Source: Candidatus Micrarchaeota archaeon
GTDB taxonomy: Archaea > Micrarchaeota > Micrarchaeia > Micrarchaeales > Micrarchaeaceae
NCBI GenBank assembly: GCA_021816885.1
Contig: JAKAWS010000003.1
Location: 5,091 to 69,090 of the forward strand
Direction: 5' to 3'
DNA: 64,000 bases
The position numbers and the translations under genes were made by a program. Positions within the stretch are counted from its first letter, which is position 1. Every line of letters begins with the position of its first letter. The notes under the pieces are model-generated. The model searched no databases, had not been told where the DNA came from, and was given only the letters and a program-made list of their open reading frames with translations. Positions 5,267 to 64,000 of the stretch are shown here, piece after piece.

Positions 5267-7156
5267 CTATATGTCAAGGAATGAGACCTCCGTCGAATGC
5301 TCTTCCAAGAACCTTCGCCGCGGCTGCACGTCTATTCCCATAAGGACGCTGAACAGCGTATCTGCCAGCTCAGCATCCTTCACAGTTATCTTTTTCAGTA
5401 TTCTATTCTGGCTGTTCATGGTCGTTTCCCAGAGCTGGTCGGGGTTCATCTCCCCCAGACCCTTATATCTTTGTATTTTGGCCTTCGGATTGGTCTTAAC
5501 AAGCGCCTCCATCTCCTTGTCCGAATATACATACTTTGCCTCTTTTCCGAAGCTTATCCGATAAAGTGGCGGCTGCGCCACGTACACAAATCCTTTGTCT
5601 ATGAGCTGCTTCATGTATCTATACAAAAAGGTCAGTAGCAATGTCTTTATGTGGCTTCCATCAACATCGGCATCAGTAAGCAATATGACCTTTCCGTACC
5701 TCATCTTCGATATGTCGAAATCATCGCCAATCCCGGTGCCGAAGGCAGTGACCATCGCCCGTATCTCGGCGTTTCCGAAAATCTTGTCCTTTCCTGCCTT
5801 CTCTACATTAAGTATCTTACCCTTAAGCGGTAGTATTGCCTGCGTGAACCTGTCCCTGCCCTGTTTGCTGGAACCAGCAGCGCTCTCTCCCTCCACTATA
5901 AATATCTCGGTCCTGGAAGGATCGCTCTCGGTGCAGTCGGAGAGTTTGCCAGGAAGGACAGCACTATCAAACATGTTCTTCTTCCTTGCAATGTCTCGCG
6001 CGTTACGTGCCGCCTCTCTGGCTACCGCCGCCCTTAAAACGCTCTCCATTATTTTAGAAGCATCAGAAGGGTTCTCTTCTAGATGCCTGACAAGCAACTG
6101 GTAGACTACATTATCGACAATTGCCCTGATGTTCTGAGAGCCCAGTTTTTCTTTTGTTTGGCCTTCGAACTCAGGATCATGCATGAGAACAGAAACCACA
6201 CACACAAGCCCTTCCCTGCAATCATCCCCTTCAACAGGGACGATCTTCTTCGAATTCTTTTGTATGTAGCCAAGTATTGCCCTGCTGAGCGCAGAATGGA
6301 AGCCGGCGACATGGGTACCTCCTTCAGGTGTCTTCACATTGTTCACAAAGGAGACGAGCTTCTCGCTGTAGCTCTTCACATATGTCATTGCGACATTCAC
6401 TGCTACGGAGTCAGATTCCTTTGAGAGTATTATCGGCTTGCCGATTCTTTCTTTGTCTCCGGCAAGTATGTCAAGCAAGTCGACGATTCCGCGCTCAGAG
6501 CGGAAGGTTTCCCTCTCTTCGGACTCGCCTCTCAGGTCTGTAAACTCTATCTTAAGACCTGGGTTCAATATCGCGATGTCTCTGATGTGTTCTTTCATGA
6601 ACATAGTGTCAAAACTCCGCGATGAGAATATCGTGGCATCAGGTTTGAATCTGACTGTGGTGCCGGTAGAAGAGGCATTTCCTATTATCTCCAAGCTTCC
6701 GACCGGAGTGCCTTTGGAGAAGCGCTGCCTGTATTCGGTTCCATTTCTCCTTACCTTTACTTCAGTATACTCCGAAAGGGCGTTTATCACAGTAAGCCCG
6801 ACGCCGTGAAGACCGCCAGACACTTTGTATATCCTATCGTTGAATTTGGCGCCTGAATGCAGCGAAGTCATTATAGTTTCGAGGGCAGACCTTCCATCTA
6901 TCGAATCCACAGGTATGCCTCTGCCATCATCGCTGACTTCAGCCCAATCCATCCCATCCTCTTTGCCGACTGTCACTGTTATGTTTTTACAATATCCAGC
7001 GACAGCTTCGTCAACAGCGTTGTCTACCAGTTCATAAAGGAGGTGGAGCATGCCAGCGCTTCCAGTAGACCCGATGTACATCGCAGGGCGTTTCCGAACA
7101 CCCATCGTGCCGGAAAGCACTACTATATCCTTTGCGCTATAGCTATCTTCGCTCAT
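5267..7156 (-). CDS. gyrB: DNA gyrase subunit B
   Basis: 629 aa. GHKL ATPase motifs (LHLLYELVDNAVDE, GLHGVG), Toprim EGESA, PLKGKILNVEKA. Lies directly upstream of gyrA in the same orientation. Confidence 0.95.
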   Translation of the reverse strand: MSEDSYSAKDIVVLSGTMGVRKRPAMYIGSTGSAGMLHLLYELVDNAVDEAVAGYCKNITVTVGKEDGMDWAEVSDDGRGIPVDSIDGRSALETIMTSLHSGAKFNDRIYKVSGGLHGVGLTVINALSEYTEVKVRRNGTEYRQRFSKGTPVGSLEIIGNASSTGTTVRFKPDATIFSSRSFDTMFMKEHIRDIAILNPGLKIEFTDLRGESEERETFRSERGIVDLLDILAGDKERIGKPIILSKESDSVAVNVAMTYVKSYSEKLVSFVNNVKTPEGGTHVAGFHSALSRAILGYIQKNSKKIVPVEGDDCREGLVCVVSVLMHDPEFEGQTKEKLGSQNIRAIVDNVVYQLLVRHLEENPSDASKIMESVLRAAVAREAARNARDIARKKNMFDSAVLPGKLSDCTESDPSRTEIFIVEGESAAGSSKQGRDRFTQAILPLKGKILNVEKAGKDKIFGNAEIRAMVTAFGTGIGDDFDISKMRYGKVILLTDADVDGSHIKTLLLTFLYRYMKQLIDKGFVYVAQPPLYRISFGKEAKYVYSDKEMEALVKTNPKAKIQRYKGLGEMNPDQLWETTMNSQNRILKKITVKDAELADTLFSVLMGIDVQPRRRFLEEHSTEVSFLDI

Positions 7157-10302: not shown

Positions 10303-10391
10303 GGGTCTATAGCTCAGCTTGGTTAGAGCGGCTGGCTCTTAACCAGTAGGTCGAGGGTCCAAAATCAAAGATGGAAATCCCTCTAGACCCG
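10303..10391 (+). tRNA. tRNA-Lys (anticodon CTT) with a 14-nt insertion (putative intron) in the T-loop
   Basis: Acceptor gggtcta/tagaccc, D-arm gctcagcttggttagagc, anticodon stem gctgg/ccagt with loop ctCTTaa, T-stem gaggg/ccctc. The T-loop is 21 nt (tccaaaatcaaagatggaaat) rather than 7. Removing 10361-10374 restores tccaaat. Confidence 0.75.
10361..10374 (+). other. Putative non-canonical tRNA intron (T-loop position 56/57) in tRNA-Lys
   Basis: 14 nt, aaaatcaaagatgg. Its 3' end (tgg) pairs with T-loop nt 54-56 (tcc...a) to give a 4-bp helix, and a 3-nt bulge (aat) precedes the T-stem. Confidence 0.55.
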
Positions 10392-10396
10392 CACAA

Positions 10397-11557
10397 CTAA
10401 GGCTGCATCCAGTCAATCTCATAATACTCATACTCGCTTCCAGGCAGGTCGATCTTCTTTATCTTGTAGTAAGTGACGGATGTCTCTCTATCGGCAATCG
10501 CCACTACAAGTTCAAGCTTTCTCGATTTCGACTCCTTTATCATGCTTGAAAGCTCTGCGCCGCCTATATAGGAACTTTCCGTCAGAGAAAGCATCGCGTA
10601 AGACGGAGCGCTGTGCTCTGGAGACTCGCTGTCCCCTCCTTTCCTGTGATAGAGCACAAAGTCTATCTCCTCATTTTTCTTCCTGCTCTTTCCAGGTATC
10701 GCAAGTATGAACGTCTTTCTTACAGAATGCGCGACCCGTATGGCTCTTGACCACTCCGAAGTCAGTAGTTTCTGGTCCTGCGGAAATACATGAAGGACGT
10801 GCTTGGAATGGGTCCAGTTCTCATCCTTTATCGGCTTTGCGCCAGGGAAATATATCCTAAAGTGCGTTCCAAACTTAAAACCAGTCTTTACCACATACCC
10901 TTTCTCTCTCCAGTCTGCATACACCTCATACAGCTTCATAAAATCCTGCCTGCGCTTCCTGGCAGCATCTACTATCTCTTTCTTGCTAAAGCCATCTATG
11001 CTCAATACCCCTTTATCTATAAGGAAGACCGCTTCGTATATATCGAGCTTGTTCAGAATCCCTCTGTCGCTAGCTTTGTAAGTGCCATACTGGCCTAGCC
11101 AGAACTTGTCGTATATCTCCTTCCCCTTTTTCTGATCGTCGATTATGACTGTTAGGTCTTCTGGGAAGAATACTCCTTCGAGGCTTATTCCTCTCAGGTT
11201 CAGGTTTGATGCAGGATACCTTTTTATGGGTGTTCTATCAGATCCAGACTCGTGGTCCGGTTGTTTTATCACGAGTCCTCTGTCTCTCCAGTCCTTGAAC
11301 GTGAAATATCTCGCCATGGACTTCTTCGAACTGAGCCCTTTCGCAATCTCGTTAAAACTTACACTATTTCCTAGCGTATCTGTGCACGAAGCGTTTCTCA
11401 CATCAATCAGATAAAGCGCCTCAACTAGATCCAGATGCAAAAGACCGGAATCCAACCTTCCGAAAGAGGTGCGCCTAAGGTTGTCTATCGTAGACTGGTC
11501 CTTCACAAGCGCCATGTGCGCTTTCCTATCATATATTATCTCAAGCATGCAGTCCAC
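10397..11557 (-). CDS. endA: tRNA-splicing endonuclease, multi-unit (epsilon2-like, three-unit) form
   Basis: 386 aa. The central unit carries the catalytic signature YADWREKGYVVKTGFKFGTHFRIY (Tyr/His/Lys triad region). An N-terminal EndA-like unit (LVEALYLIDVR...) and a C-terminal degenerate unit (HVLHVF...VAHSVRKTFILAI) flank it. The length matches the three-unit enzymes reported from ARMAN-type archaea. Confidence 0.8.
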   Translation of the reverse strand: MDCMLEIIYDRKAHMALVKDQSTIDNLRRTSFGRLDSGLLHLDLVEALYLIDVRNASCTDTLGNSVSFNEIAKGLSSKKSMARYFTFKDWRDRGLVIKQPDHESGSDRTPIKRYPASNLNLRGISLEGVFFPEDLTVIIDDQKKGKEIYDKFWLGQYGTYKASDRGILNKLDIYEAVFLIDKGVLSIDGFSKKEIVDAARKRRQDFMKLYEVYADWREKGYVVKTGFKFGTHFRIYFPGAKPIKDENWTHSKHVLHVFPQDQKLLTSEWSRAIRVAHSVRKTFILAIPGKSRKKNEEIDFVLYHRKGGDSESPEHSAPSYAMLSLTESSYIGGAELSSMIKESKSRKLELVVAIADRETSVTYYKIKKIDLPGSEYEYYEIDWMQP

Positions 11558-33980: not shown

Positions 33981-34118
33981 GGGGTTGTGGCGTAACCAGG
34001 CAGCGCAGTGGGCTCCAGATATTTAGTATTAAGTTGAGCCGTTTGGGCGATGATGAGAATCTGGAAATATGAATAGTGAAGTAACCTGCTGGTCCGGGTT
34101 CAAATCCCGGCAACCCCA
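33981..34118 (+). tRNA. tRNA-Trp (anticodon CCA) with a 65-nt intron at the canonical 37/38 position
   Basis: Acceptor ggggttg/caacccc, D-stem gcgt/gcgc, anticodon stem gtggg/cctgc with loop ctCCAg|a, T-arm ccgggttcaaatcccgg, discriminator A. The exons are split by 34019-34083. Confidence 0.8.
34019..34083 (+). other. tRNA-Trp intron (canonical position)
   Basis: 65 nt. Contains GATGATGA (box C-like, 34050-34057) but no clear CUGA box D. Confidence 0.6.
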
Positions 34119-37715: not shown

Positions 37716-37811
37716 GCAGGGATGGCGGAGCATGGTCAAACGCGACAGACTCAAGATCTGCTGGCTTAGGCCTACGGGAGTTCAAAACGAGAACAAATCT
37801 CCCTCCCTGCA
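37716..37811 (+). tRNA. tRNA-Leu (anticodon CAA, type II) with an 11-nt insertion (putative intron) in the T-loop
   Basis: Acceptor gcaggga/tccctgc, 3-bp D-stem, anticodon loop ctCAAga, long variable arm (tggcttaggcctac), T-stem gggag/ctccc, discriminator A. The T-loop is 18 nt (ttcaaaacgagaacaaat). Removing 37784-37794 gives ttcaaat. Confidence 0.7.
37784..37794 (+). other. Putative non-canonical tRNA intron (T-loop 56/57) in tRNA-Leu
   Basis: 11 nt, aaaacgagaac. Its 3' end (gaa) pairs with T-loop nt 54-56 (ttc), the same architecture as the tRNA-Lys insert. Confidence 0.5.
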
Positions 37812-39036: not shown

Positions 39037-39684
39037 ATGACAGAAGAAAATCTAAAGGGTATATTCAAGAAATACGAGCTCAAACCGCTGCCTTACAATC
39101 TGGATGCGCTTGAGCCTTACATAAGCAAAGACATAATGGATGTGCACTATAATGGGCACCATAAGGCATATGTGAACACAGTCAACAACCTAGTAGACAG
39201 GTTCGGAAAGATAGTAAACGAGGAGACGAAGGAATATGACATACAGGGAGTGGTGAGAGGCATAACCTTCAACCTGAACGGGCATAAGCTGCATTCCCTA
39301 TACTGGAACAATATGGCAGAGGAATCGAAGAGGGGAAAGCCGGGAGGCATGATAGCGGACATGATAAACAAGCAGTACAAGAGCCTGGACAGGTTCAAGA
39401 AGGTGCTGTTTGAGACTGCGACATCGCTGCCTGGCACCGGTTGGACGACCCTGAACTACGACGTGGAGAACGGAAACCTACAGATAATGACATATGAGAA
39501 CCATTTCATGAACCAGATAGCTGAGCTTCCAATAATAATGATACTTGACGAGTTTGAGCACGCGTACTACCTCCAATACAAGAACAAGAGGAACGACTAC
39601 ATAGAAGCATGGTGGAACCTGATAAACTGGGGCGACGTGGAGAACAGGCTAAGGATTGCAGTAAACAGGGCACCAGAACACTAA
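39037..39684 (+). CDS. sod: Superoxide dismutase (Fe/Mn family)
   Basis: [25 protein letters not shown] ... [13 protein letters not shown] metal-ligand motifs. 215 aa. Confidence 0.95.
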
Positions 39685-40757
39685 GCAAGGCTGGCTATAA
39701 CGTCCATAAGCTTGCCTATCGGACAGGATGTACGTATGCTCTCTTTCTCCATGTGGGTAAGAGAAGCAGAAAACCCACCCTCCCTAAGGGAGCTGATGAC
39801 CTTTCCAGGGCTCACTGAAGGCATCCGGGCAATCTTAGTAAGCACAGGCAGAGAGTAATAGAATAAAGAATCTGTCTCTTCGGATATCATGCTAGCAATC
39901 TTGGCGTCAGGGAATCCGGACCGCACGAAATACGAGCACGCGTCGCGCCGGACTTTCTCATCATAAAGCGGACCGAGCCACATAATCCCAGAAGAGACTG
40001 CGCCTGCCCCGCAAGCTCTGCAAACGCTCTGTTTTGGGATAAACCCGATTTTGGTATCTATATTCCTGCAGTCCATGCAATGATATGCAAAACCAAGGCT
40101 GTGCACCGTCGAAGAGGAATTGGCAGCGCCGTGCCTGAGTACAAAGGCAATTCTCATCATATGCCTGTAAGAGAAGGAGAAGATGACATCTATTCCGTAG
40201 TTGAACTGGGCGGATATACGCGCGCAATATCCTATGAGTATGCGAAGCCCTGCCTCATGGCAAAGTTCGTCATGGAGCGGCACAGAGCCATACATCTTCA
40301 TGCATGCTTCTGGCTGAGCGCCACAGAGGACTGCGGTATCGGTTGCGCTCACAAGGAAGATGGTCCCGTCCCTGCCTATCTTCATAAGGTCATACAGGTT
40401 AGGGACTGGGCTGCCAAACGGGTCAAGGTCTATGATGTCAAAACGCTCTTCTGAGGAGTTGGCGAAGCTCTGGATGCTCTCGTTGAGCACCTCAGCGCGG
40501 ATTCCGTTATCCGATAGGTTCTTCCTGGCAGAGATGCTCGCATCTTTATTTATATCCAAAAATGTCGCGTTCTCGATTCCAAGCTCTTTGGCATACCTTA
40601 TCCCTCTGATACCTGTCGCCGAAGTTGAATCGAGCAGGGTCTTCTTCCCGGAGAAACACGAGAGGATGGCAACGCTCATATCCCTAGGGAAACGCGAAAG
40701 AGGGTTTAGGAAAGCAGAACCCTCGTCTATGACCGCCAATCCCTCCTCATATCCCAT
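39681..40757 (-). CDS. trm1: tRNA (guanine26-N2)-dimethyltransferase
   Basis: [32 protein letters not shown], and a C-terminal Cys cluster. 358 aa. Confidence 0.85.
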
Positions 40758-43111: not shown

Positions 43112-44548
43112 TTAAGGATTAAGGACTCTTTTCATCATCTCCTGCCAGACTGGCTTCGCATAGCGTTCGGGCAGGCGTTTAAGGATTTTGCTCTTTCCTT
43201 TCATTATGTGGGAAGGAAACGGGAATTTTTTATCTTTTACAGCCCACCTGAGAAATCCTTCAAGGTCTCTTATTTCAGACTTTCTAATCGAGACAAGTCG
43301 TTCGCCAGACAGAAGTAATATCTCGCTGGGGCTATGTTTGAGATAAAACGACGATGCGCCATCTTTGATGAAGACGCTAGGGCCGCGGACCGACTCAGAG
43401 CCTATTTCTGCACGATTCAAGAAGAAAGTGATTATTGCCACATTCTGATAAAGGCTTTGGACAACAAGTATTGGCTCGGATATGCTCTCAGAGACCAGTT
43501 TTTCAAGGTTCTTTCTGAGCTTGGTTATCTGTGGCCATACGGTATCTTCAGATATCTTGCTGACAGGCATGACTATGCTGCATGACTCGATACTGAATTT
43601 GCGCTTGAAGCCTTCAATGCTTGCGGAGGCCCTCTCATCAGAGAATTTCTTCCCGAAGAATACAGATGAAAGATTCTTGGATGCAAGAAGCATCCTGGAT
43701 ATAATAACAAGCCTTGCGAAGGACTCGTCAGATACGGCGGCAGCGACATTCCTGTTCGGGTCGGTAGGATCCACAACTACAAGATTGGAGGCGAACCGCC
43801 TCGAGAATTCCAAGCCCCTATCGCCATATACGACCTCCTGTATTTCTGGCCTTATCAGGACAGGGAGTTTCGCGTCTGAAAGAGACTTCAGCATCTTAAG
43901 AAGGCTTCCGTAACTGCAGATAAGGAGCTCGCAAAGGTATCCGGAGAATCCGCCAATTCTTGCTTCGGCTCCGTATATGTAGTGTTGCTTAAGCAGGTAT
44001 TTGAGCGCACGCACATCGCCCTTCTGTTTTTCTGTTAGGTTATCATTCACAAAGATATTGTGGAGCGGGGTGCGATCAACAGCACTAGCGATCTCTGAAG
44101 CATCGCTTATCTTGAACGAGGGAACCACATCCGCGCTCATTCCAGACTTATTCTCGATGATCTTGAGGTAAGGATGTTCAGCATAGTTTATCACAAAATG
44201 CTCGTTCTTCCTATCGACTATGCGCTTAGCGATAAAAAGGGCTTTTTTCTCCATCTCCCTTTCCTCCATAACTTTGGGAAACTGAAGGAAAATGTCTATG
44301 TCCGAAGAGCCGCGTATCTGTGTGCCACGTGCGACAGAACCCGCCATTATTATCTCAACATCGCCGGGAAGCTTGCTCTTCAGCCTTGAGATTATTGAAT
44401 CAGCATACTCAGTAGTAAGAAATATCTCGTCCTTGGTAGGTTTAGTCTCGGATGCGATACGCTCTATCAATCTGGCAAGCGGTTCGGCAGGTTCGCTTGC
44501 CTTAACATTCTTCTTCGGCGGTTTAGCAGAGGAGCGCACGCACATCAA
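43112..44548 (-). CDS. cca: CCA-adding tRNA nucleotidyltransferase (archaeal class I)
   Basis: MAGSVARGTQIRGSSDIDIFLQF (Pol-beta NT motif) and the archaeal Cca body. The ~25-aa N-terminal extension in the ORF track may not be translated. Confidence 0.85.
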   Translation of the reverse strand: MMCVRSSAKPPKKNVKASEPAEPLARLIERIASETKPTKDEIFLTTEYADSIISRLKSKLPGDVEIIMAGSVARGTQIRGSSDIDIFLQFPKVMEEREMEKKALFIAKRIVDRKNEHFVINYAEHPYLKIIENKSGMSADVVPSFKISDASEIASAVDRTPLHNIFVNDNLTEKQKGDVRALKYLLKQHYIYGAEARIGGFSGYLCELLICSYGSLLKMLKSLSDAKLPVLIRPEIQEVVYGDRGLEFSRRFASNLVVVDPTDPNRNVAAAVSDESFARLVIISRMLLASKNLSSVFFGKKFSDERASASIEGFKRKFSIESCSIVMPVSKISEDTVWPQITKLRKNLEKLVSESISEPILVVQSLYQNVAIITFFLNRAEIGSESVRGPSVFIKDGASSFYLKHSPSEILLLSGERLVSIRKSEIRDLEGFLRWAVKDKKFPFPSHIMKGKSKILKRLPERYAKPVWQEMMKRVLNP

Positions 44549-44603: not shown

Positions 44604-44675
44604 GGGGCTCTTGGCTCAGTAGTAGAGCGCCTCGTTCGCAACGAGGAGGCCGCGGGTGCGAATCCCGCAGAGTCC
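44604..44675 (+). tRNA. tRNA-Ala (anticodon CGC), intronless
   Basis: Acceptor gggctct/agagtcc with the G3:U70 Ala identity pair, D-arm gctcagtagtagagc, anticodon loop ttCGCaa, T-arm gcgggtgcgaatcccgc, discriminator A. Confidence 0.85.
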
Positions 44676-44676
44676 A

Positions 44677-44685
44677 CGTTTTTTC
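44677..44685 (+). terminator. Oligo-T tract after tRNA-Ala
   Basis: cgttttttc immediately 3' of the tRNA; an archaeal terminator-like T-run. Confidence 0.35.
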
Positions 44686-60580: not shown

Positions 60581-60588
60581 CTTTATAT
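60581..60588 (+). promoter_or_regulatory. TATA-like box (tttatatg) about -28 from tRNA-Ser
   Basis: A/T box at canonical spacing. Confidence 0.4.
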
Positions 60589-60611
60589 GTTTTGGTGAAG
60601 AAAGAGAATCC

Positions 60612-60708
60612 TGCCGGGATGGCAGAAACCGGTATTGCGCCAGACATATGGGCGAAACTCGAGATCTGGTTTCCGCAAGGAAGTTTGGGTTCAAATCCCA
60701 ATCCCGGC
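60612..60708 (+). tRNA. tRNA-Ser (anticodon CGA after splicing, type II) with a 13-nt insertion in the anticodon loop at 32/33
   Basis: Acceptor gccggga/tcccggc, D-stem gcag/ttgc, anticodon stem ccaga/tctgg, variable arm t-ttcc-gcaa-ggaa-gt, T-arm ttgggttcaaatcccaa, discriminator G (Ser identity). 20 nt lie between the anticodon stem halves. Removing 60645-60657 yields the loop cTCGAga. Confidence 0.7.
60645..60657 (+). other. Putative non-canonical tRNA intron (anticodon-loop 32/33) in tRNA-Ser
   Basis: 13 nt, atatgggcgaaac. Without splicing the loop would lack U33 and the anticodon would be ambiguous. Confidence 0.5.
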
Positions 60709-60712
60709 GAAG

Positions 60713-63700
60713 TCATAGGAACTTAGCCAGGCTGAACTGCCTCTGGTTTGTGCTAGAGCTCACGCCGAATACGGTATCTATCTCGTTCTTAAGTAAGCGG
60801 ACGCGCTGCTTTATGTAAGGGTCTAAATCATACCTATCTGCGAGGTCCGTGGCCATAACCAGATATTTCTCTATTCCTCCTTTTGATATTGTTAGCACTA
60901 TCTTGCCCCCGCATCGTTCGCACGTTCCCGTAAGCGGCACCCTTCTGTATTTCGCATTGCATGCTATACATCTGAACTTCTGCTTAGAGAACGAGTGCAG
61001 GTTTCCCATAAGGTCAGGGATGAAATGGCTTGTTATAAGCCTGCTTGCCGTGTCCTTCCTGTCTATGCTGCACAATATATCCATGAGTTTAAACTGCTCC
61101 TCCACCTTCTCGTCCATTGTCTTCATTGTGGTATAGAAACTGCGCAACGGCGAATCAGGTATTGCGTTGGCCGAACTTTCGTGTGTAAACCAAATTTCCG
61201 AGAATGCGGAATTGCTGCTGATCCGTCCCTTGACGCTCTCGACCTGCGCGTCCGACGGCGGCCCCATCGCGGCTGTCGCGTCATAGAACTCCAAAGAATA
61301 TTCCCTTACCACTTCCATCTCGTGTACCTCGTCATCCACCTCTGCAGGGTTCACGTTTAGGGTAAGGATAAGCGGCGCGTCCATAGTCCCTCCTACAGTC
61401 GTCGGAAGGTACTCCCTCGAAAAATTGATGAGGCCATCAAGGAGAAGCATCGTGGTGTCTTCGTCGCCGTCGCAGTTTCTCCGCCGTGCGCAGACGAGAT
61501 ACGGGTGGCACAACCCTATCGATGCGTCAGTGAACCCTATTATTCTTCCGAGCACTCCGGCCGATGTATGCGGGGAGAGGGTAATCACACAGTGCCCTAT
61601 AAGCCCATCTGCATTATCGAGCCTATAAAACCTATCCATTTTATAGTGCCTATCAAGAAGGTCGTCGATAAACTTTGACACCCTGAAGAAATAATCGCCA
61701 GCCCTTCTGTTGAGTATGACGTCCTGATGCATAAGCTCGACGAGCTGGTCTTCCGATACAAGCCCATTTCCGAAACAGTCTGTCCTGTATCCGAGCTCTG
61801 CCAGCTTTTCTATGCTTGTGCCTATCTCCTTCGGATAGAAATGGGTAATCGGAGCGTCTGTCGCGTCGAATCGTGCTGTTCCGTCTTTGAAAATATAGAC
61901 ATTATGCATACTCCTAAGTATTCCTTTTTCCAATGGCTCCGATATCTTGTCCCGGCTCACAAGCCCGCCGACCCCCTTCACTGATTTTGGTACAGAGCTT
62001 ACCCCTATGTTCGTCAGCGCAGAATTCATGGTCTTGAGCATATTTACATTTCTCTGTTCATTGGAGTATGCGGGAGTGCCGCAGGTTAGGCAGAGCTTCT
62101 CCGTAGTCCTGGCGCCGCATTTTTTGCACCTTCTCTCTATATCCGCACTGCAGTTGTGCACAGAGCAGAATCCAGACCCTACATATTCCTTGCCGATACT
62201 GCATCTGAAGCTCGCTATGTCCAGAAGCACGCCGCTACTCTTCAGTTTCTTGCTCTCTATGAAGTACGCTTTGGACAGGTTTCTGTCCTTTCCGCCGTGC
62301 TCTGCAATCGGGAAAAGCACATTGGGCGCTGGCTTCATTAGCCTCTCCTTCGCCTTCTCCGGCCGGCCCATACGGCCGCCTATCCTATACGCCCTTCGTC
62401 TCAGCTCCAGTTCCGAGACAGAGTTAAGCATCTCAAGCGCCGCAGCCCCTGTCATCTTCCTCGTGGAAAGGTCTATCATACCTTCCTTAGAGAAGCCGAA
62501 AGCCGAGAGAAGGCTCTGCGCGTCATCTCCCCTTATCTCTATCTTGTCTCCGAAGTCAAAGTGCGGTATGCATATTCTCTCAACGATCCCCCTTATCCTG
62601 TCGAGCTCTCCCTCAAAGAAGACAGCCTCCAGGTTAAACAAAGATTCGCCGTTCCTATCCATTCTAAGCGAAGACTTCCGTATCGCATCAGCAAGAATCT
62701 GCACGTCATAATCCTGAATGTCCGCATAGTCATAGAGATATCGCGGATGGAGCGGAACCGAGTGCTTCTTGGAAATGCTGTATGCGTCTGCAAACGAGCC
62801 TATGACTGCTTCCTGTTCCTGTCCTTTCTCCTTGATCTGTGCACACCAATATTCCTCCACATAGCTGGTTGGCATAAGCCTTGTATTCGATTTCTTGAAG
62901 TCTCCGAGCGTTATGAGCATATCACCGACAGAGAGTATCTTGCTTATGTTCCCGTATACCCTCCTTGCGGTCGGAACATCATTCACCCTAAAAGCCTCTC
63001 CGCTCTTCAACTTTACGAAAGGTCCCTCTATAGAGTCGACAGGCATCACAATGCATCCCTTTCCGGGCTTTTCTATCTTCAGCTGTGTCCCGACAGCTAT
63101 AAACTTAAGGAGCACCATCGTGGCTGGATTAAGCCCCTTTGCCGCTATTCCTGTGAATCTTGACCTTCCATATCTGAGCCGAAATGCGCCTGGATGCTCT
63201 GGATATGCAAATATCGGCCTCCCCGCGACCTGTTCGTGCAGAAATACTGCATCTTTCTCAGAGCTTTCGTGCTGTGCAGAGCCTTTGTCGACCTTTATTA
63301 TGTTGTTGAGCCAATTCCAATCGAGCTGCGCAAGCTTGGTATACTTCAGTATATTCTTCGCTTTCTGGGCGATTCCCTCGCAGCTCACAAGTGCTATCCC
63401 TCCTCTGACCCTATTGGTCATCCTTTCCTCTTTTCCAGAGGCGCCAAGCCTTGTTATGTCCCTGTGAAGGCTTACCTCGAACTCCTCTGTTGGCAGTCCA
63501 TCTATGCACACCGGGCAGTTCTCGAATATGGTGCGAATGTCATCTTCGGGCGGCATGTACTGTAGCCGAGCGGCTCTGGCGTTGTAAAGTTGTATTTCCT
63601 CAAGATATCTCTCCACCTCCTTCGCCTGTGCTTTGTACGTTCCTACCCCCATATGCTTTCTGGCAAGGTCAAGCAATGCTACAGAGAGCGCGGCACTTGT

Positions 63701-64000
63701 GCCTCCAGCCCCCCTTATCGGCCCGGCGTACAGCGCAGCCACATAATCCGATCCATCAGAATTCTTATGCATCTCCACCCCTTGGAATCCCTCGGTAGGT
63801 GCCACAAGTATTCCTTCTGTAAGTATCGCAAGCCCTATCTTGACAGACATGTCCATGCGCCCTAGTTTTCCATCTGCCCTTATCGCTTTTGCTACCTCGT
63901 CATCCTTGCATATCCTGTTTACCATCCTGAACGCGAGATCCTGCCTGCTCTTCGAATCCTGCGATTCATCCCTGATTATATCTGCTATCCCTTCTACCCC
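60713..64000 (-). CDS. polC: DNA polymerase II (PolD) large subunit DP2, 5' end beyond the window
   Basis: Over 1070 aa match DP2, with Zn-finger cysteine clusters (CPVCIDG; CKKCGARTTEKLCLTCG; CIACNAKY...CERCGG). The reading frame stays open upstream of the ATG at 63925 through position 64000, so the N-terminus is truncated by the window edge. Confidence 0.9.
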   Translation of the reverse strand, partial: GVEGIADIIRDESQDSKSRQDLAFRMVNRICKDDEVAKAIRADGKLGRMDMSVKIGLAILTEGILVAPTEGFQGVEMHKNSDGSDYVAALYAGPIRGAGGTSAALSVALLDLARKHMGVGTYKAQAKEVERYLEEIQLYNARAARLQYMPPEDDIRTIFENCPVCIDGLPTEEFEVSLHRDITRLGASGKEERMTNRVRGGIALVSCEGIAQKAKNILKYTKLAQLDWNWLNNIIKVDKGSAQHESSEKDAVFLHEQVAGRPIFAYPEHPGAFRLRYGRSRFTGIAAKGLNPATMVLLKFIAVGTQLKIEKPGKGCIVMPVDSIEGPFVKLKSGEAFRVNDVPTARRVYGNISKILSVGDMLITLGDFKKSNTRLMPTSYVEEYWCAQIKEKGQEQEAVIGSFADAYSISKKHSVPLHPRYLYDYADIQDYDVQILADAIRKSSLRMDRNGESLFNLEAVFFEGELDRIRGIVERICIPHFDFGDKIEIRGDDAQSLLSAFGFSKEGMIDLSTRKMTGAAALEMLNSVSELELRRRAYRIGGRMGRPEKAKERLMKPAPNVLFPIAEHGGKDRNLSKAYFIESKKLKSSGVLLDIASFRCSIGKEYVGSGFCSVHNCSADIERRCKKCGARTTEKLCLTCGTPAYSNEQRNVNMLKTMNSALTNIGVSSVPKSVKGVGGLVSRDKISEPLEKGILRSMHNVYIFKDGTARFDATDAPITHFYPKEIGTSIEKLAELGYRTDCFGNGLVSEDQLVELMHQDVILNRRAGDYFFRVSKFIDDLLDRHYKMDRFYRLDNADGLIGHCVITLSPHTSAGVLGRIIGFTDASIGLCHPYLVCARRRNCDGDEDTTMLLLDGLINFSREYLPTTVGGTMDAPLILTLNVNPAEVDDEVHEMEVVREYSLEFYDATAAMGPPSDAQVESVKGRISSNSAFSEIWFTHESSANAIPDSPLRSFYTTMKTMDEKVEEQFKLMDILCSIDRKDTASRLITSHFIPDLMGNLHSFSKQKFRCIACNAKYRRVPLTGTCERCGGKIVLTISKGGIEKYLVMATDLADRYDLDPYIKQRVRLLKNEIDTVFGVSSSTNQRQFSLAKFL

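Follow-up and report, generated by a model that had tools for sequence, protein, structure and literature searches.

The 64-kb stretch of DNA analysed here (hereafter the window) belongs to a Micrarchaeota (DPANN) organism, a tiny, acid-loving archaeon related to ARMAN-2, and is matched by the MAGs GCA_027314355.1, GCA_027332845.1 and GCA_027314345.1. Positions 60613-60709 of the forward strand carry a tRNA-Ser(CGA) gene that runs from G1 to the discriminator G73 and is interrupted by the 13-nt insert ACAUAUGGGCGAA (60644-60656), giving a precursor of 97 nt and a mature tRNA of 84 nt. Its neighbour on the reverse strand (60713-63925) encodes the large subunit of DNA polymerase D (PolD), which is ~58% identical to those of named relatives such as Ca. 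Micrarchaeum, Ca. Mancarchaeum and other Micrarchaeota. When the tRNA region is searched alone it matches the Rfam tRNA family RF00005 with 43 bits (E=3.9e-8, gathering score 29). ARAGORN with introns allowed (-i) reports a tRNA-Ser(cga) that contains a 13-nt intron; given the in-silico spliced sequence, it reports an intron-less tRNA-Ser(cga). The insert therefore breaks a bona fide tRNA gene whose joined exons form a canonical cloverleaf. Neither default ARAGORN nor an Rfam gathering scan of the whole window reports the gene, so that Micrarchaeota annotations made without intron-aware archaeal settings will seem to have no UCG decoder. UCG accounts for 200 of the 1336 Ser codons in the long ORFs of the window.

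All arms of the cloverleaf are intact. The acceptor stem has seven Watson-Crick pairs out of seven (GCCGGGA, 60613-60619, with UCCCGGC, 60702-60708) and is followed by G73 at 60709, the D stem GCAG/UUGC combines three Watson-Crick pairs with G13-U22, and the anticodon stem CCAGA/UCUGG (60640-60644 and 60665-60669) pairs 5/5. The variable arm UUCC-GCAA-GGAA is of type II, and the T arm UUGGG-UUCAAAU-CCCAA likewise has a fully paired 5-bp stem. The first-pass annotation had described just such a tRNA-Ser, with a 13-nt insert, paired arms, a type-II variable arm and G73, within a span (60612-60708) that lies one base off at both ends. Since the gene encodes no CCA (60710-60712 read AAG) a CCA-adding enzyme is needed, and one is encoded on the reverse strand at 43112-44548 (Pfam tRNA_NucTransf2, 1.9e-31, and NTP_transf_2). 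Upstream, a TATA-like box TTTATAT (60583-60589, 24-30 nt before G1) is a putative archaeal promoter for the tRNA; a relative has an A/T-rich box at equal distance from its tRNA-Ser.

The halves of the anticodon stem are separated by 20 nt, and position 33 would be A in an unspliced molecule. Retention of the insert in a functional RNA, whether as an enlarged or alternative anticodon arm or within some other, tRNA-like structured RNA, is extremely improbable. The minimum-energy (MFE) structure predicted for the precursor has the insert base-paired to the D-arm side, as such a reading might expect, but no alternative offers a 7-nt loop with U33, and the options that keep at least two 5' loop bases all have A33. 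No other Rfam family scores above threshold at the locus, and intron-less orthologues with an identical mature sequence exist. The 20-nt gap and the A at position 33 were correctly seen in the first-pass annotation, which also gave UAU as the anticodon of the unspliced molecule.

Splice motif and intron register

The target of the archaeal splicing endonuclease is a 4-bp helix between two 3-nt bulges. The same geometry is given for canonical introns (PMC4090602), and the crystal structure of ARMAN-2 EndA with a bulge-helix-bulge (BHB) RNA, in which dU14 prevents cutting at one site while the other is cleaved between A14 and A15, places cleavage after the second bulge base (PMC12397907). We scanned the precursor for 3-4-3 BHB motifs and retained those whose excision restores a 5-bp anticodon stem and a 7-nt loop. 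A single 3-4-3 BHB restores tRNA-Ser, with cuts at 60643|60644 and 60656|60657. Its central helix is built from four G-C pairs between C25, G26, C27 and C28 of the exon (60638-60641) and GGCG of the intron (60651-60654). The 5' bulge AGA comprises A29, G30 and the first intron base (60642-60644), the 3' bulge AAA comprises two adenosines and A31 (60655-60657), and the predicted cuts fall after the second base of each. Between the 5' bulge and the intron strand of the helix lies a hairpin, h' (60645-60650), in which the pair C60645:G60650 closes the loop AUAU. The 5' exon (positions 1-30, 60613-60643) then has G30 of the anticodon stem as its last base, and the 3' exon (positions 31-73, 60657-60709) provides the anticodon loop C32 U33 C34 G35 A36 G37 A38 (60658-60664) with the anticodon CGA at 60660-60662.

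With its 4-bp helix, its two opposite 3-nt bulges and cuts after the second bulge bases, this motif predicts excision of exactly 13 nt. It does not have the strict hBHBh' form, in which h and h' are each at least 2 bp; h consists of G60637:C60658 only and h' of C60645:G60650 only, and since each is 1 bp the tRNA-Ser BHB is a relaxed motif. Among random 13-mers, an in-register 3-4-3 BHB arises in only 0.4% of trials with Watson-Crick pairs and in 1.2% when G-U is allowed. Thermodynamically the BHB conformer is not the most stable one: a shifted register reaches the local MFE of -7.1 kcal/mol, whereas the bare H hairpin has -5.4, and selection of the BHB conformer would presumably need protein binding. 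As a filter on all BHB-guided excisions, ARAGORN was too permissive, accepting 8 'tRNAs' for the Ser gene and 26 for another interrupted gene at 33981-34118, and the requirement for a 7-nt loop and 5-bp stem was therefore used.

Several other arrangements were considered and rejected. None of the remaining BHB registers restores a 5-bp stem with a 7-nt loop. For a canonical 37/38 intron the anticodon stem would have to serve as h and CAUA would have to pair with CUCG, where only one of four pairs forms, and the product would keep A33 and the anticodon UAU; the first-pass annotation had also decided against 37/38, and the sole restoring BHB bears it out. Group I and group II introns possess a ribozyme core of hundreds of nucleotides. 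The insert has only 13 nt and matches no Rfam intron family, and a self-splicing intron of either group was accordingly rejected.

The register of the intron within the local sequence is ambiguous from one genome. Excision of 60644-60656, 60645-60657 or 60646-60658, corresponding to junctions at 30/31, 31/32 and 32/33, produces an identical mature tRNA-Ser, because the insert starts with AC and AC stands again directly 3' of it. Junction reads from the organism of the window alone therefore cannot separate the three registers. The first-pass annotation was thus right about a tRNA-Ser(CGA) with a 13-nt non-canonical intron and mistaken about the uniqueness of its excision, which it had limited to 60645-60657 as the only way to a legal loop, and about the position. 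Its title gave 32/33, while its own coordinates amount to 31/32; splice-motif geometry and the comparative data described below indicate that the junction is 30/31, inside the anticodon stem.

The intron among relatives

One genome per species was scanned for the tRNA-Ser anticodon arm, with 0-30 nt allowed after CCAG, which returned 99 loci in 99 species genomes; the pattern fixed the exon strand of the H helix, and the sample is biased to the anticodon arm of the window's tRNA-Ser. An insert of 11-30 nt directly after CCAG(30) is present in 73 of the 99 genomes, and 64 of these inserts are unique. The 26 intron-less loci come from Hadarchaeota, Theionarchaea, Thermococci, Undinarchaeota and a few Micrarchaeota. 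At their 3' ends all 64 unique inserts have GGCG followed by two bulge bases (GGCGAA in 63, GGCGAU in one). The H helix is invariant across the sampled introns, and because the search pattern fixed its exon strand this invariance gives no covariation support. Such support comes from h', which ranges from 0 to 4 bp among relatives. Its mean length over the 64 unique introns is 1.09 bp, compared with 0.49 +/- 0.08 in shuffled cores (0/2000 shuffles reach 1.09), and 95% of h' cells are paired compared with 84% in shuffles (0/500 reach 95%) and 21-45% in slid controls. In the 15-nt class the closing pair is paired in 12/12 introns and is variously UA (7), AU (3) or GC (2). Orthologous introns of 11 to 30 nt have therefore kept the motif rather than the sequence, with a covarying intron helix.

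The same introns discriminate between the registers. They begin with U (34), A (29) or C (one), and where the first base is U or C (35/64) only a junction at 30/31 keeps both A31:U39 and the mature sequence. Across the set 30/31 is workable in 64/64, 31/32 in 29/64 (those starting with A) and 32/33 in 4/64 (those starting with AC). A direct placement of the indel at 30/31 comes from L097 (CCAG|CGCAUUUGCGGCGAA|ACUCG), whose exon body is shared by the intron-less L052 and L060. An intron of the anticodon loop itself, at 31/32 or 32/33 and removed through an unusual recognition mode, would yield the same mature tRNA as excision of 60644-60656, but neither of its registers matches a 4-bp helix with flanking 3-nt bulges. 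Counted over the relatives, these registers leave most introns unexplained without altering the mature sequence or breaking A31:U39, and the covarying h' pair places the 5' bulge at A29-G30-i1. We regard a loop intron as unlikely, and a 32/33 junction is possible in the window only through the AC repeat. A junction at 30/31 makes a distinct prediction for Ca. Micrarchaeum A_DKE (L064), in which the intron begins with U: the spliced RNA should read CCAG-ACUCGAGA, as opposed to CCAGU-CUCGAGA in another register.

Four independent assemblies of the organism contain the exact 97-nt gene, as does a relative. In the relative with 85% PolD identity the tRNA-Ser gene is identical, intron included; at 76% it has one change, U60649 to A in the intron loop, and at 65% the intron is 12 nt long (AACAUAGGCGAA). 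The intergenic DNA beside the tRNA diverges in all three and the intron is retained. Synteny between the gene and PolD extends to close relatives; no tRNA-Ser was found beside PolD in L012 (68% PolD identity) or L014 (61%). In L012 the slot downstream of PolD (5957-6700) holds ~730 nt of unrelated sequence and no tRNA, so that synteny is already lost at 68% identity.

These data also bear on whether the locus is a disrupted, non-functional pseudogene from which the 13 nt are never removed. The failure of default tRNA finders to report a tRNA-Ser(CGA) would fit a pseudogene, and tRNA-Ser(UGA) could in principle decode UCG. However, all stems are intact and the exons are without substitutions in the relatives at 85% and 76% PolD identity, the 64 variants of the insert in 73 genomes keep a conserved 3' end and show covariation in their pairs, the insert length changes from 11 to 30 nt with the splice motif kept throughout, and a matching endonuclease gene lies in the window. 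A pseudogene is very improbable on this evidence. We conclude with high confidence that 60613-60709 is a functional tRNA-Ser(CGA) gene, with its anticodon stem interrupted between G30 and A31 by a 13-nt archaeal intron of the protein-spliced kind that is almost certainly removed in the organism.

Beyond the Micrarchaeota, six loci of the Hadarchaeum clade (L026, L042, L051, L077, L083 and L104) carry a tRNA-Ser(CGA) with a 30/31 intron of 13-14 nt and the form U-CA...G-GGCG-AA. The tRNA body in this clade is clearly unlike that of Micrarchaeota, and other Hadarchaeota have an intron-less tRNA-Ser(CGA). Two public MAGs with other labels contain Micrarchaeota-type tRNA-Ser(CGA) genes: L043 (labelled Methanothrix sp.) has an intron identical to that of Micrarchaeum A_DKE, and L088 (labelled Candidatus Acidiferrales bacterium) has one identical to that of L047. 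Both contigs are probably mis-binned Micrarchaeota. The 861-kb JGI contig Ga0315314_1000003 (L187), from another lineage, carries a tRNA-Ser(CGA) whose anticodon arm is interrupted by 34 nt at the same AC-ambiguous site; no clean 3-4-3 BHB was found for this insert in any of the three registers. A search of metagenomes for further Ser isoacceptors yielded for the most part unrelated archaeal Ser/Leu tRNAs with the same acceptor stem. It also turned up a Micrarchaeota-like tRNA-Ser(GGA) without an intron (L183, JGI contig Ga0164318_10106945), with acceptor and T arms nearly those of the window's tRNA-Ser, which hints that the 30/31 intron may be specific to the CGA isoacceptor.

Splicing enzyme, known systems and neighbouring tRNA genes

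An epsilon2-type tRNA splicing endonuclease (EndA) of 386 aa is encoded on the reverse strand at 10397-11557. In phmmer its residues 10-386 align with residues 8-387 of ARMAN-2 EndA (PDB 4FZ2/9W2K; E=2.2e-164), and Pfam identifies the domains tRNA_int_endo and tRNA_int_endo_N. It is a single three-unit protomer of the ~390-aa size that marks the epsilon2 type, and alignment to 4FZ2 shows that it keeps the catalytic triad Y236/H251/K282, R275, W384 and the ASL residues Y160 and K161, whose roles have been described (PMC6379350, PMC12397907). ARMAN-2 epsilon2 EndA cleaves strict as well as relaxed BHB motifs in vitro (PMC3239211), and the genome thus encodes an enzyme of a type whose activity on relaxed motifs is established in the ARMAN-2 literature. 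This EndA is predicted to remove the tRNA-Ser(CGA) intron.

A plausible route would begin with the pairing of exon bases C25-C28 with intron GGCG to form the 4-bp central helix, at the expense of the last D-stem pair and of two pairs at the top of the anticodon stem, and leaving A29-G30-A(i1) and A-A-A31 as two 3-nt bulges. The homodimeric EndA would then cut each bulge after its second base, and a ligase, presumably of the RtcB type, would join G30 to A31; no RtcB-like motif was found within the 64-kb window. After ligation the CCAGA/UCUGG stem and the C-U-CGA-G-A loop could form, and CCA would be added by the enzyme of 43112-44548. The window also encodes Trm1, the m2,2G26 methyltransferase (39681-40757, reverse strand). 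Given that G26 lies in the BHB central helix, it may be speculated that its methylation by Trm1 follows splicing or competes with the splice conformer.

Interrupted tRNAs together with an epsilon2 enzyme are known for ARMAN-2 and Mancarchaeum. The closest precedent is the pre-tRNA-Cys(GCA) of ARMAN-2 (Ca. Micrarchaeum acidiphilum), which has a 13-nt intron at 59/60 that epsilon2 EndA cleaves in vitro (Fujishima et al. 2011, PMC3239211). The tRNA-Ser intron shares with the ARMAN-2 introns the phylum, the enzyme type, the 13-nt size class and the relaxed BHB logic, and the window has a similarly high interrupted fraction, five of six tRNA genes as against 56% reported for ARMAN-2 (PMC3239211). 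It differs in that it lies at 30/31 in the anticodon stem of Ser(CGA) and not in the T-loop, and whereas the hBH substrate tested for ARMAN-2 has a full h helix, the flanking helices of the tRNA-Ser motif, as read from its sequence, are 1 bp each.

Position 30/31 is itself among the listed non-canonical positions, together with 20/21, 22/23, 25/26, 29/30, 45/46, 53/54, 56/57 and 59/60, and is where tRNA-Lys(CUU) is split in Nanoarchaeum equitans and Staphylothermus (PMC4090602). Those cases share with the tRNA-Ser intron the anticodon-stem junction and BHB-dependent processing; most of them are from Crenarchaeota and Nanoarchaeota, whose enzymes are of the (alpha-beta)2 type, whereas the present intron belongs to a Micrarchaeota organism that encodes an epsilon2 EndA, and is found in Hadarchaeum as well. 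Increased tRNA disruption has been reported in Hadesarchaea (PMC5829648). Compared with the canonical archaeal and eukaryal 37/38 intron in its strict hBHBh' form, the 3-4-3 core and cut geometry are the same, but the junction lies 7 nt further upstream and the helix draws on bases 25-28 of the D stem, position 26 and the anticodon stem instead of 32-35, so that the tRNA body has to open in part for the motif to form.

The rarity implied by the first-pass annotation does not survive this comparison, in that 30/31 is a listed position (PMC4090602) and the tRNA genes of Micrarchaeota and ARMAN-2 are heavily interrupted (PMC3239211). Non-canonical introns, position 30/31 and the broad specificity of epsilon2 enzymes are already known, and a tRNA-Ser intron is ordinary for the lineage. 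What is specific here is an intron in tRNA-Ser(CGA) that is kept across most sampled Micrarchaeota, also occurs in Hadarchaeum and whose flanking helices are very short. These findings leave the understanding of archaeal tRNA splicing as it was and add to it a well-documented 30/31 intron kept across an epsilon2-using phylum, with 64 sequence variants and a covarying intron helix. Because the flanking helices are unusually short, these variants form a convenient natural substrate series for testing epsilon2 specificity. A more ambitious proposal, which we consider unlikely, is that the intron common to most Micrarchaeota and the Hadarchaeum clade is either a single old one, vertically kept, or one repeatedly regained; that it represents a minimal substrate class in which flanking helices are near absent and the D stem, stacked on the central helix, replaces h; and that its persistence is functional rather than neutral, for instance by blocking integration or nuclease targeting or by gating modification of G26 or the anticodon stem.

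The remaining tRNA genes of the window show the same tendency to interruption, and in three of them the BHB rule gives a unique, correct solution and so serves as an internal control. These are tRNA-Gly(CCC) (889-972), with a canonical 37/38 intron at 927-937 and the helix UUCC/GGAA; tRNA-Lys(CUU) (10303-10391), with a 14-nt T-loop intron at 10364-10377 and a clean UCCA/UGGA BHB; and tRNA-Leu(CAA) (37716-37811), with a T-loop intron at 37786-37796 and the helix GUUC/GAAC flanked by AAA/AAA bulges. The Gly gene was missed by the Rfam gathering scan and found only with the intron mode of ARAGORN, and the EndA gene lies 6 nt from the tRNA-Lys gene. The only intact tRNA gene of the six is tRNA-Ala(CGC) (44605-44677).

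The identity of the sixth gene (33981-34118), which has a long intron, is ambiguous between Trp and Arg. ARAGORN calls Arg(CCU), and the loop CUCCAGA with A73 fits Trp(CCA) with a 65-nt insert at 34019-34083; its canonical BHB contains one C-A mismatch. The insert includes a C-box-like AUGAUGA (34050) and AUCUGGA (34058-34064), a stretch that could pair with UCCAGAU in the anticodon loop by complementarity. This arrangement recalls the box C/D guides carried by tRNA-Trp introns of Euryarchaeota; no Rfam C/D family matches the insert. Lastly, position 55 of tRNA is nearly universally U (pseudouridine 55). The T-loops UCCAAAU of tRNA-Gly and tRNA-Lys and UGCGAAU of tRNA-Ala have C or G at this position.
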